Of a DNA stretch of 64,000 nt, positions 47,272-49,809 are shown piece by piece (positions within the stretch are counted from its first letter, which is position 1; each line of letters begins with the position of its first letter). The stretch is from Bdellovibrionales bacterium (GTDB lineage Bacteria; Bdellovibrionota; Bdellovibrionia; Bdellovibrionales; JAUICD01): contig CBDANC010000015.1 of the NCBI GenBank assembly GCA_965197425.1, positions 202,704-266,703 of the forward strand, in the 5' to 3' direction. The translations under genes and the position numbers were made by a program. Below the pieces are notes generated by a model that saw only the letters and a program-made list of their open reading frames with translations, did not search any database and was not told where the DNA came from.

Positions 47272-48342
47272 TTGAAGTTTATGTTTATAAAGTTTTATAT
47301 GGATTATGCAATAACAACCAGATCATTTGCAAGTGATAATAATTCTGCGGTAATCCCAGAAGCAATTAATGTAATAAATAGTGTAAATAGAAACCATGTT
47401 GGGGCATATGGCAATGATCCTATTACTAAAATGACACAGGAGTTGTTTCAATCTGTATTTGGCAAAAATTCAAGAATGTACCTTGCTTTTAATGGCACTG
47501 GAGCTAATCACCTTTGTTTGATGCCATTTTTGAAATCGTATGAGTCTGTTATCTGTTCTGAGCTTTCTCATATAAATAATGATGAATGTGGTTCTCCAGA
47601 GCGTATCATTGGTACCAAGTTGCTAGCTATTCCAAGCGATGATGGAAAAATTACTCTAGATGGGATTAGGGAAAAGTTGGTAAGGCTAGGAGACCATCAT
47701 CATGTACAACCAAGAGTAATAAGTATCACACAGCCAACTGAAGTAGGAACTTTATATTCGATAGATGAGCTTAAAGCTATCTGTACTTTGGCAAGGGAAA
47801 ATGGGCTTGTAGTACATATGGATGGAACAAGATTGGTGCATGCTGCCTGTGCTTTGGACTGTTCTTTAAAAGCACTTACCTGTGATGTTGGCATTGACTG
47901 TCTATCTTTTGGTGGTACTAAAAATGGATTGCTTTTGGCTGAGGCCTGTGTGTTTTTTAATGGGTATAATGTTCATTCAATCCCTTATTATCAAAAACAG
48001 CTCCTACAGTTACCCGGAAAATCTAGATTCGTATCTGCACAATTTTATGCTTTTTTAAAAGACAACACTTGGCTTAAGTACTCCAAGAATTCCTTAAAAA
48101 TGGCCAAGCTATTGGAGGCTAGTATCTTAAACTTGGGCATTGAAGTAACTCAAAAAGTGGAAACCAACATGGTGTTTGCCAAGATACCCAAACAGAGCCT
48201 AAAGAAGGCCAGAGAAAATTACTTTTTCTATGTCTGGGATGAGTCACCCGATGAAGATATGTACGAAGTAAGGTGGGTCACCTGCTTTGACACTAGTGAA
48301 GAAGATGTTAAAAATTTTGTAGCCAGTCTTAAAGCTCTTTAA
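47272..48342 (+). CDS. ltaE: Low-specificity L-threonine aldolase
   Basis: It has SFASDN near the N-terminus, GTGANHL, and the PLP-lysine block FGGTKNG. The likely start is MDYAITTRSF at 47299. Confidence 0.8.
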   Translation: MKFMFIKFYMDYAITTRSFASDNNSAVIPEAINVINSVNRNHVGAYGNDPITKMTQELFQSVFGKNSRMYLAFNGTGANHLCLMPFLKSYESVICSELSHINNDECGSPERIIGTKLLAIPSDDGKITLDGIREKLVRLGDHHHVQPRVISITQPTEVGTLYSIDELKAICTLARENGLVVHMDGTRLVHAACALDCSLKALTCDVGIDCLSFGGTKNGLLLAEACVFFNGYNVHSIPYYQKQLLQLPGKSRFVSAQFYAFLKDNTWLKYSKNSLKMAKLLEASILNLGIEVTQKVETNMVFAKIPKQSLKKARENYFFYVWDESPDEDMYEVRWVTCFDTSEEDVKNFVASLKAL

Positions 48343-48400
48343 TTCTAAGAGCATCTTTGTTCAGTTACCCATTGCATTCACTGTATTGTAGTTCGGTTAT

Positions 48401-48682
48401 TTATGATGAGAGAATTTTGTTTAATCTGACTAACTCTCTTTCTACTCTTTTTTGAACATGATCATTTTCGTAATTAACAAATTCCACTTTAGATAAATCT
48501 ATTCCGTATTTGTGAAGAGAAACTAGTAGCTCAGAAACAAAAGATTGTGCGGTTGATTTAACCCCAGAGAAGCTAACACAGACAACCTCACCAGGTTTAG
48601 GTTGAATTTCCTCCACAGCTTCAAAAGCACGACTTCTTCCTGATAGAAAACTTCCATATTTTTCTAGCTCTATTAACTTCAT
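48401..48682 (-). CDS. STAS-like small protein (DUF4325-type)
   Basis: It is 93 aa and is translationally coupled (4-nt overlap) to the upstream GHKL ATPase. The block VVCVSFSGVKSTAQSFVSELLVSL resembles the DUF4325 STAS-like fold as I recall it. Confidence 0.5.
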   Translation of the reverse strand: MKLIELEKYGSFLSGRSRAFEAVEEIQPKPGEVVCVSFSGVKSTAQSFVSELLVSLHKYGIDLSKVEFVNYENDHVQKRVERELVRLNKILSS

Positions 48683-49500
48683 TTGAAAGGTACACTCATC
48701 TCAAATAGTACACCACACAATTTGTAATTTAAAGCACTAGATTCAAATTCTTTTACACAAGTCCATTCTACACATGTATTACCGCTTAAGACACGGATCT
48801 TACCAGAACTCTTTTTAATAAAATCAAGGGTTTCATATAACCCAATGCCTCTATATTTAATCTCTGATTTATTGTTGAGACTGCTTTCCAATTCATTGAA
48901 TGATTCCAATATAATTTGCTCCTCATTCCTTCCACGATCCTGGCCAGTTCTTTGATAAGATTTTAAGAATCCCACACCCACATCGGAAACTGCGACCTCA
49001 ACAATTCCCTTATCATCGTAAACTTGTGCGTGAGCGTATCCCCATCCTTGATTTCCCTTCGGGCCAGAGTGAAAATAAATATTGTTGGCAATCTCGCCAA
49101 ATATATCTGCTAATTCAGTCACCAATGAACCAGGAGCTAGAGGATTAAAAACAGCATGACATTTGTCTTCTAAAGTGCAGTCGCGGTCATCAACAATTTT
49201 AAGTAAAGGAAAAAATTTTGCAGAATCTTGTTTGTTGTGTGGATATGTGTATCCAGTACCATCAAATAACCCCATTCTCCCTCCATAGTTCTTAACATTC
49301 TCATTTGAGGGCGGAATTATAAAAACCTTCAACTTACAGTCAAATGCCAAATCAATTATACAACGCACTCTTACTAGAACAGCAGGCGTAAAAAATTGTA
49401 TATCTGATAGGTCAATTTTGATACTTGAGTATTTTCCAGAATGAATGTCATATGGCGACGGGCCTGTCTTTGTAATATCTGCATTAATAGTGAGGTTCAC
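48679..49500 (-). CDS. GHKL-superfamily ATPase (RsbW/SpoIIAB-like kinase fold) with a unique N-terminal domain
   Basis: The N-box is EIANNIYFH (ExxxNxxxH), the G1 box is VSDVGVGF (DxGxG) and the G2 box is YRGIGLYE. Confidence 0.65.
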   Translation of the reverse strand: MNLTINADITKTGPSPYDIHSGKYSSIKIDLSDIQFFTPAVLVRVRCIIDLAFDCKLKVFIIPPSNENVKNYGGRMGLFDGTGYTYPHNKQDSAKFFPLLKIVDDRDCTLEDKCHAVFNPLAPGSLVTELADIFGEIANNIYFHSGPKGNQGWGYAHAQVYDDKGIVEVAVSDVGVGFLKSYQRTGQDRGRNEEQIILESFNELESSLNNKSEIKYRGIGLYETLDFIKKSSGKIRVLSGNTCVEWTCVKEFESSALNYKLCGVLFEMSVPFK

Positions 49501-49654
49501 TAACTTATCTCCTGATCATTATTATTATATCAACAACAGTTCTATCCATCCTTCTAAGTATTAATATTCTCAGATACAACTGTTATATTTATCTCGAACC
49601 ATTCTACCAGGTTTTTATGTAAAGGACATATCTCTGTTTTGATCTAGGCTTAGA

Positions 49655-49809
49655 CCCAAAGAACCTTTAAAAAGGCCAGAGAAAATTACTTTTTCTATGT
49701 CTGGGATGAGTCACCAGATGAAGATGTGTACGAGGTAAGGTGGGTCACCACTTTTGATACAACTACCGAGGATGTTGAAAACTTTGTGGCTGCCCTAAGC
49801 CAACTTTAA
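49655..49809 (+). pseudogene. Displaced 3' fragment of ltaE
   Basis: It translates to ...ARENYFFYVWDESPDEDVYEVRWVTTFDTTTEDVENFVAALSQL*, compared with the intact ARENYFFYVWDESPDEDMYEVRWVTCFDTSEEDVKNFVASLKAL*. There is no upstream coding continuation. Confidence 0.85.

Follow-up and report, generated by a model that had tools for sequence, protein, structure and literature searches.

The duplicated end of ltaE and the genes between its copies

The window analyzed here is a stretch of 64,000 nucleotides (nt) from a Bdellovibrionales bacterium, and our subject is a cassette of two genes, which we call K and S, that lies in it between two copies of the 3' end of the threonine aldolase gene ltaE (Table 1). 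The genome (1.6 Mb in 15 contigs, 99% complete, 2.5% contamination) may be a metagenome-assembled genome (MAG), and was compared with the complete, single-contig genome of a sister species of the same genus. The ltaE gene is intact and encodes a product 83% identical in amino acid sequence to the sister orthologue. K and S are minus-strand open reading frames (ORFs) that overlap by ATGA and converge on ltaE.

A repeat search delineated a direct repeat of 122 nt (48202-48323 and 49669-49790, 86% identical, spacing 1467 nt), self-BLAST of the genome recovered the pair (E = 3e-33), and our own alignment of both regions with the sister genome extended the homology to the limits given in Table 1. 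The perfect run between the copies is exactly 44 nt long. In the pre-core, upstream of this run, 9/18 positions are identical and a 1-nt indel leaves copy 2 out of frame, and in the post-core, downstream of it, 68/94 positions are identical (72%). The perfect core is not due to constraint, because the sister species differs at 9/44 of its positions. Copy 2 is a 51-codon open stretch with stop codons ahead of it. A sequence-only reading of this DNA had described the last ~155 nt of ltaE as occurring twice around two translationally coupled genes, with a 44-bp identical core and differing encoded tails, and the alignments agree with it on each of these points, down to the two tails as it wrote them.

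Table 1. Features of the ltaE-hemJ region, in window coordinates.
Feature	Position	Strand	Description
ltaE (threonine aldolase/beta-eliminating lyase)	47272-48342	+	Intact, 356 amino acids; Pfam Beta_elim_lyase, E = 1e-40
Repeat copy 1, working ltaE end	48187-48342	+	Core 48205-48248
S, DUF4325 STAS-like protein (VapS-like)	48401-48682	-	93 amino acids; 3' end 58 nt from convergent ltaE
K, predicted STAS and GHKL serine kinase-type protein (VapK/CapK-like, no helix-turn-helix)	48679-49500	-	273 amino acids; 4-nt ATGA overlap with S
K upstream region, right end of inserted DNA	49501-49654	-	Weak sigma-70-like site 49548-49521; no homology to ltaE or the sister genome
Repeat copy 2, displaced ltaE 3' end (pseudogene fragment)	49654-49809	+	Core 49672-49715
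Fossil of ancestral ltaE-hemJ spacer and first hemJ codons	49810-49898	+	86% identical to the sister genome over 51 nt
22-nt perfect repeat, left copy	49877-49898	+	Now the start of a 221-amino-acid ORF (49886-50551)
Second island	49899-56806		6.9 kb; absent from the sister genome; sits 68 nt past copy 2, inside the first hemJ codons
22-nt perfect repeat, right copy	56807-56828	+	Holds the hemJ start (ATG 56816); HemJ TIGR00701, E = 1e-38

The cassette is an insertion that displaced the host end of ltaE

In the sister genome hemJ begins 44 nt after ltaE, i.e., the site is empty. Window positions 43775-48340 align to that genome as far as the ltaE stop, and the alignment continues from 56807 onward with the start of hemJ. 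Between these blocks, positions 49654-49800 (77.7% identical) and 49848-49898 (86%, 51 nt) align to the sister ltaE end, spacer and hemJ start, and the whole of 49654-49898 (copy 2, spacer and hemJ start) is colinear with the empty site. The adjacency of ltaE and hemJ in a genome of the same genus indicates that the cassette is an insertion; furthermore, since copy 2 adjoins the ancestral spacer and copy 1 adjoins foreign DNA, the tail of copy 2 (tail 2) is the host original and that of copy 1 (tail 1) is incoming. Between the two insertions, 245 nt of the ancestral ltaE-hemJ junction are preserved as a fossil. Thus, insertion at the 3' end of a gene by DNA that supplies a working tail and displaces the original, as had been proposed from the sequence, was borne out by the empty site and by colinearity, and the tail that this proposal left to be decided, the ancestral one, was identified by its contiguity with the ancestral spacer. 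The last ~94 nt of ltaE (tail 1) arrived with the cassette, and in our reading the pre-core of copy 2 would derive from the incoming DNA and its post-core from the host. The tails themselves are phylogenetically uninformative, being equally far from the sister species (67/94 and 69/94), and their divergence from each other (72% identical) is close to their divergence from that species (71-73%). Among 31 relatives, a second match to the ltaE tail was found in the window genome only.

K is a predicted STAS-GHKL protein and S a DUF4325 protein

K alone had no match in Pfam, NCBIfam or PDB sequence searches, and its domains were assigned through a family profile. A word-index search returned only four close homologues, with identities of 38-49%; in each case the next gene overlaps and encodes ~100 amino acids. 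An exhaustive profile search with E <= 1e-3 as its limit returned 2273 cluster representatives, most of which have 270-320 amino acids and matched over their full length. K also matched phrog_3364 (E = 9e-26) and, weakly, PADLOC PDC-M65A. Among 61 aligned members of the family, HATPase_c was matched in 39, HATPase_c_2 in 20 and STAS in three. Residues 110-250 of the family profile match histidine kinases, CheA and SpoIIAB, and residues 10-95 match the STAS proteins TM1442, MlaB and SpoIIAA. The N, G1 and G2 boxes of the ATP site (E136/N140/H144, D173xGxG177 and G218xG220) are invariant in the 61 relatives. In the AlphaFold2 model of K (pLDDT 85, pTM 0.87) a STAS-like beta/alpha pattern begins at residue 2, and the best Foldseek match is SpoIIAB (TMt 0.70; top structures 1l0o, 1til and 1th8).

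S scores 26.3 bits against Pfam PF14213 (DUF4325; cutoff 23 bits), compared with 62.7 bits for VapS, the antitoxin of a system described below. For S, AlphaFold2 predicts a small fold of the STAS type (pLDDT 96), in which one helix spans residues 46-58 and a long C-terminal helix residues 74-92; Foldseek gave weak STAS matches to this model (best E = 0.08) in a structure library older than the VapS entry. Ser47, at the N-terminus of helix 2, is invariant in 10 partner proteins and is the only invariant serine. One homologue (P0217), which was not placed on a contig, is 71% identical to S. The sequence-only reading had called the two products an RsbW/SpoIIAB-like GHKL ATPase and a 93-residue STAS-like protein and had suggested profile comparisons with GHKL/RsbW and DUF4325/STAS; the matches of the K family to HATPase_c, HATPase_c_2 and STAS and of S to DUF4325, together with the boxes and the folds, confirm both descriptions.

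K and S are related to the VapKSC and CapKS systems

Both systems were described by Chambers et al. (EMBO J 2026, PMC13373217). CapK (helix-turn-helix-STAS-GHKL) is switched on by single-stranded DNA (ssDNA) and phosphorylates a conserved serine on helix 2 of CapS (STAS-winged helix-turn-helix), upon which CapS leaves the DNA and adjacent immune operons are de-repressed; at ~20% of capKS loci, a restriction-modification (R-M) system occupies the position directly upstream. VapK (STAS-GHKL) phosphorylates the STAS antitoxin VapS and thereby frees the PIN toxin VapC. The VapKSC operon protects E. coli from phage Bas42, and this protection is abolished by each of VapK F54A, VapS S48A and VapC D28A. 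Activation by ssDNA requires an aromatic residue in the groove between the STAS and GHKL domains (VapK F54, CapK W68) (PMC13373217). In an older survey, one VapC group was found coupled to genes of DUF4325 (PMC5499597).

We compared K and S with VapK and VapS using sequences taken from the supplementary model files of PMC13373217. The K family aligns with VapK over 236 columns spanning both domains (hhalign, 99.5%, E = 3e-23). K N140 falls on the N-box asparagine VapK N160, and K F36, in an F-x-x-P motif, on VapK F54; F, W or Y occupies the latter position in 51/61 and in 29/29 relatives. The N-terminal ~130 residues of K, which had been taken for a novel domain, are a STAS domain as judged from the family profile and this alignment, and a pair that had seemed of unknown function is homologous to VapK/VapS and CapK/CapS.

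In its architecture the pair resembles VapKSC: K is a full-length STAS-GHKL homologue that lacks a helix-turn-helix (HTH) domain and has the same ssDNA-site aromatic residue and N-box asparagine, S, encoded directly after K, belongs to the DUF4325 STAS proteins and has a conserved serine at helix 2 and a C-terminal helix, and both systems occur in defense neighborhoods. It differs from VapKSC in that no VapC or other third gene is present, S has 93 amino acids as opposed to 116 in VapS, and the identity of K and S to VapK and VapS is very low, with no significant BLASTP match. No match to PIN or any other toxin family was found in any island ORF, and no ORF follows S, the convergent ltaE lying 58 nt away; the suggestion that the pair is toxin-antitoxin-like is therefore doubtful, since a toxin gene is not present. 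With CapKS the cassette shares a kinase-substrate pair, of which CapK is the ssDNA-activated kinase, and an R-M gene pair lies upstream of it on the same strand. Unlike CapK, however, K begins with its STAS domain (273 amino acids in all) and has no N-terminal HTH; S consists of a STAS domain and one helix and has no match to an HTH family, so that it cannot be a CapS-type repressor; and no immune operon follows S in the window. Judged by its predicted domains, then, the cassette is a bare K-S pair that strictly belongs to neither VapKSC nor CapKS.

Relatives of the pair lie in mobile and defense-related DNA

The nearest homologues of K are encoded by Bdellovibrionales MAGs, and a search for related loci returned two Bdellovibrionales MAG contigs. 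Three metagenomic or MAG loci belong to the close K-S subfamily, which occurs in 6/201 genomes of the order; these genomes fall into several families and do not include the nearest relatives. More widely, the two-gene layout with no third gene was found at at least nine independent loci, with identities from 20% to 49%. A tblastn search with K gave no plasmid match and, among phages, one weak match to an unannotated Clostridioides phage. Flavobacterium-type K-S loci lie beside an integrase/HTH_17 island or beside an MmeI R-M system with Rep_1, and another pair (genome G108) lies in a region resembling an integrative and conjugative element (ICE), with TrbI, a coupling-protein fragment, Dam and a DDE transposase. 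In genome G112 (locus L040, 7648-12848; contig G112:C9), an Avs2 gene (PADLOC, E = 0) immediately follows K-S on the same strand, with an IS21 IstB gene on the other side of the pair. The Francisella prophage KIRK carries, between cI and the integrase gene, a gene for a 293-residue hypothetical protein followed by one for a 112-residue DUF4325 protein (PMC7924643), apparently the same K-S layout. This survey supports the mobile and defense-related contexts that had been anticipated for the ATPase homologues, namely prophage, ICE-like, R-M and Avs2 neighborhoods; a tie to sigma-factor regulons, which the sequence-only reading had named as speaking against its interpretation, was not seen at the inspected loci.

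Several further arrangements were encountered. The position of the pair in G112 is CapKS-like, though its S has no DNA-binding domain. In genome G070 (locus L041, 6984-8952; G070:C1:206983-208951), an operon encodes a K-like protein of 334 amino acids, a DUF4325 S protein of 106 amino acids (50 bits) and a GNAT acetyltransferase of 177 amino acids, and resembles a VapKSC analogue in which GNAT replaces the PIN toxin. Proteins in which K and S are fused also exist. In addition, 39/61 K-family members match positions ~25-282 of the 1750-position PADLOC profile PDLC02567 (DISARM DrmA; best E = 4e-26), and some DrmA helicases thus seem to have a STAS-GHKL module of the K family at their N-terminus.

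The window genome itself contains a paralogue of S on another contig (G000:C13:158801-160818; locus L029, 6787-8818, minus strand), a DUF4325 protein of 95 amino acids that is 66% identical to S, and no second K. Its gene directly follows those for PDC-M19A (DUF488, 294 amino acids) and PDC-M19B (272 amino acids), a PADLOC candidate system (E = 1e-105 each), and no gene for a kinase lies close by. An E2-like SEC-C protein with a metallo-beta-lactamase-fold (MBL) protein (PDC-M48B) and an AAA_14/DUF4143 ATPase are encoded beside it, and the region looks like a second defense island.

A single crossover within the core would account for the insertion

The four flanks of the two cores form a mosaic, in that the pre-cores differ, the post-cores differ and the core is identical; such a pattern is as expected of one crossover inside the core. 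Because the pre-cores are not identical, copy 2 is not a simple duplication of a host segment, and because homology extends beyond the core, the incoming DNA would have carried a real orthologous ltaE fragment and would once have occupied this locus in another lineage. From these flanks we infer that one reciprocal crossover would have placed 1,467 bp of DNA from a related lineage in the 3' end of ltaE, the exchange falling inside the 44-nt identity between the host gene and a diverged ltaE 3' fragment of ~156 nt on an incoming, presumably circular, molecule. The fragment would have completed ltaE with tail 1 and shifted the host tail 1.5 kb downstream as a dead fragment. This would be Campbell-type homologous integration in which no dedicated recombinase takes part. 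Identities of 44 and 22 nt are within the range of minimal identity for RecA-dependent recombination, and the second island would have been brought in by the same logic through the 22-nt identity at the start of hemJ. The base composition of the cassette is that of its surroundings.

The main alternative is site-specific integration, in which the cassette would be the remnant of a larger integrative element, like a cis-mobilizable element (CIME), or would have been mobilized in trans by an integrase that used the 44-nt core as an attachment (att) site, the integrase gene having since been lost. An identical core, an element-supplied 3' end and a displaced original are the classic att footprint, the two adjoining islands with their separate repeat pairs resemble tandem accretion, and the Flavobacterium homologues lie beside integrase/HTH_17 islands. 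Family profile searches, however, matched no recombinase or transposase family among the ORFs of both islands, i.e., throughout the 8.5-kb region, and tyrosine recombinase PF00589 had no match in the whole window genome or in the complete sister genome. The same profile gave 2-17 matches in each of 11/11 other relatives searched and scored in 14/14 control genomes; its absence from the two genomes also means that they have no XerC/XerD-type gene. The only recombinase gene found in the window genome is a single small resolvase gene on another contig (C12). Of the features of an integrase-dependent element, then, the region has flanking direct repeats and relatives with an empty site, and a tyrosine or serine recombinase of its own is absent from the island ORFs. 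Moreover, the homology runs beyond the core on both sides (~50-72%) rather than being confined to a bare att core, and the cores of the two islands are unrelated. Where the sequence-only reading had left site-specific and homology-mediated integration side by side, the missing recombinases tilt the balance toward the latter and disfavor the former. We favor Campbell-type homologous integration with moderate confidence, and consider a lost or trans-acting site-specific recombinase unlikely.

It is very unlikely that the structure is an assembly artifact in which a free 1.47-kb circle and an empty site, or the ltaE tails of two strains, were joined through the 44-nt core. Such an error is conceivable in a possible MAG of 15 contigs with 2.5% contamination, since a 44-nt repeat is shorter than many assembler k-mers resolve at low k, and the contig of a related strain, described below, ends 16 nt past the core. 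Nevertheless, the K upstream region is joined to a truncated ltaE fragment whose pre-core has diverged, a junction that a strain mixture cannot create, the window contig is 461 kb long, and the related strain, from an independent sample, also joins tail 1 to S. Slippage or unequal crossing-over can give direct repeats of a gene end, yet there is next to no chance that ltaE was duplicated in situ independently of the cassette and then diverged, because a single tail is present in the sister genome as in 28 further relatives, divergence between the two tails (28%) reaches the level seen between species although their 44-nt block is perfect, and an indel and 50% identity mark the copy 2 pre-core; an old tandem duplication in cassette-free relatives, which had been named as evidence against an insertion, was accordingly not found.

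Integrative elements in tRNA, tmRNA and protein genes, as well as CIMEs, restore the 3' end of their target gene, and minimal mobile elements of the Neisseria type are exchanged through flanking homology. The ltaE cassette resembles these in its direct repeats of the target gene end, in supplying the functional end, and in being strain-variable cargo between the same two core genes. It differs from the former in that an integrase is absent from both element and genome and that homology runs past the identical core, and from the latter in the duplication left behind, which implies a single rather than a double crossover. A search for similar scars by genome self-BLAST was too noisy to interpret, owing to many repeat-protein arrays and short dispersed repeats, and one scan of JGI metagenome contigs for a degenerate-codon pattern of the core peptide gave no match. 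Contigs C11, C12, C13 and C15 contain many dispersed repeats of 70-150 nt that are 80-98% identical, and coding regions contain long internal repeat arrays, e.g., C11:45179-49399 and C15:155163-156398.

A second island and a related strain

The second island encodes, besides the 221-residue ORF, an MvaI/BcnI-type restriction endonuclease and methyltransferase, a 278-residue ORF, a DUF5677/DitA-like protein, a winged helix-turn-helix protein and a 340-residue protein with two transmembrane segments. The 22-nt repeat that brackets it takes in both the ribosome-binding region of hemJ and the first four codons of that gene (MLML). The 36 nt ahead of the right repeat (56771-56806) resemble a diverged hemJ upstream region from the island and are common to the related strain.

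That strain, L028, is represented by a contig from another sample (Logan, ERR13605529), and its core genes are ~83.5% identical to the window. Its gene order is a tail 1-type ltaE end, S, a 38-nt remnant of the K 3' end, the restriction endonuclease, the methyltransferase and hemJ. The ltaE tail is fused directly to S and is identical to tail 1 at 71/80 positions versus 56/80 for tail 2. The contig therefore represents a deletion derivative of a window-like arrangement that has lost K and kept an intact S. Over the island, its identity to the window is 88-90%, compared with ~83.5% in the flanking core genes, a difference suggesting that the two lineages exchanged the island after their split. 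Relative to the window, the strain lacks two blocks, one (48721-50625) comprising most of K, copy 2 and the 221-residue ORF and the other (52668-56770) the 278-residue to 340-residue genes, and it retains S, a possibly truncated restriction endonuclease, the methyltransferase and the same right junction, as in a hotspot being remodeled by deletions. It also lacks a stretch of ~60 nt between ltaE and S that in the window contains a terminator-like hairpin (48334-48352) spanning the ltaE stop codon.

Proposed function of the pair and its alternatives

Homology to VapK and CapK over the full length of K, an intact ATP site, the conserved aromatic residue of the predicted ssDNA site, a conserved serine at the putative acceptor position of S, the coupling of the genes and their mobile and defense-related neighborhoods are all consistent with a kinase-substrate switch. 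By analogy with VapKSC and CapKS, K would be switched on by ssDNA arising from phage infection, DNA damage or the neighboring R-M system, and active K would phosphorylate S on Ser47 and change what S binds, giving the pair a possible role in defense. Since the cassette has no gene for a toxin and its products have no DNA-binding domain, the target of S would lie outside the cassette or be K itself. Candidate partners are K (S acting as a pseudo-substrate brake), a neighboring island protein and proteins encoded elsewhere; it is also conceivable that K acts in trans on the S paralogue of contig C13.

Taken as a whole, a Campbell-type insertion that carried a two-gene switch homologous to VapK/VapS and CapK/CapS is the best explanation of the locus, and one that we regard as somewhat probable. 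Several points weigh against it. The insertion structure is that of the assembled sequence, 156 nt are too few for a phylogenetic assignment of each flank to donor or host, and the identity of tail 1 to the related strain (71/80) does not differ significantly from that of core genes. No duplications of flanking gene ends were found at four other K-S loci (L016, L017 and those of G108 and G112), so the duplication would belong to the ltaE locus and the cassette would be cargo with no intrinsic mobility. The homology of S to VapS is weak (hhalign, 53%, E = 1e-4; top PDB sequence match VapS 9z7o at E = 0.077), and S Ser47 falls one alignment column away from VapS Ser48. The pair is evidently dispensable, as the related strain lost K while S survives. 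Finally, given that no effector is encoded, a role in defense is by association only, through the R-M, Avs2, DrmA-fusion, prophage and ICE contexts.

We also considered that the cassette may be a decayed remnant of a VapKSC-type system, i.e., a three-gene toxin-antitoxin system that lost its toxin and is now functionless. Three-gene relatives exist (VapKSC itself, PMC13373217, and the K-S-GNAT operon of G070), the related strain kept S and lost K, and the window genome contains an orphan S paralogue. Nevertheless, the repeated occurrence of the two-gene layout at widely diverged, independent loci, together with two intact ORFs, invariant catalytic and acceptor residues and a preserved 4-nt overlap, makes decay rather improbable.

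Partner switching on a host sigma factor, as in the classical RsbW/RsbV pair, is hardly credible. The nearest fold is SpoIIAB, and sources label some relatives "anti-sigma regulatory factor"; moreover, the pair shares with SpoIIAB/SpoIIAA and RsbW/RsbV a GHKL serine kinase fold and a STAS substrate whose acceptor serine lies at the start of helix 2. However, no gene for a sigma factor or PP2C phosphatase was found at the window locus or the inspected homologous loci, the sole sigma-70 gene seen, ~6 kb downstream of locus L017, belonging to a housekeeping rpsU-dnaG-rpoD cluster. In contrast to those systems, the kinase bears its own STAS domain as well as the ssDNA-site aromatic residue typical of CapK and VapK, and the K-S genes are mobile, sporadic in distribution and linked to defense.

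Implications

If the cassette entered by homologous recombination, it would represent a clean natural case of gene-end replacement that proceeds without a recombinase, and the ancestral junction, preserved like a fossil where the two islands meet, can help to explain how predatory bacteria with small genomes build defense hotspots. The window locus and roughly ten relatives also depict a kinase/STAS pair that would travel alone, unaccompanied by a DNA-binding domain or a toxin. Elsewhere the pair is joined to other partners (GNAT in G070, Avs2 downstream in G112, the N-terminus of the DrmA profile), which widens the modular picture of this family. More speculatively, and on balance improbably, stand-alone K-S pairs could be complete ssDNA-triggered modules, whose output would be either phosphorylation of targets in host or phage by the kinase itself after S has been exhausted, or the action of K on S-type adaptors encoded elsewhere, such as the C13 paralogue, in which case K would serve as a shared alarm for several islands; such modules would spread without a recombinase, by means of a carried piece of a core gene, in a genus that lacks tyrosine recombinases. 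The locus thus raises a testable question, namely what the target of a bare K-S pair is.

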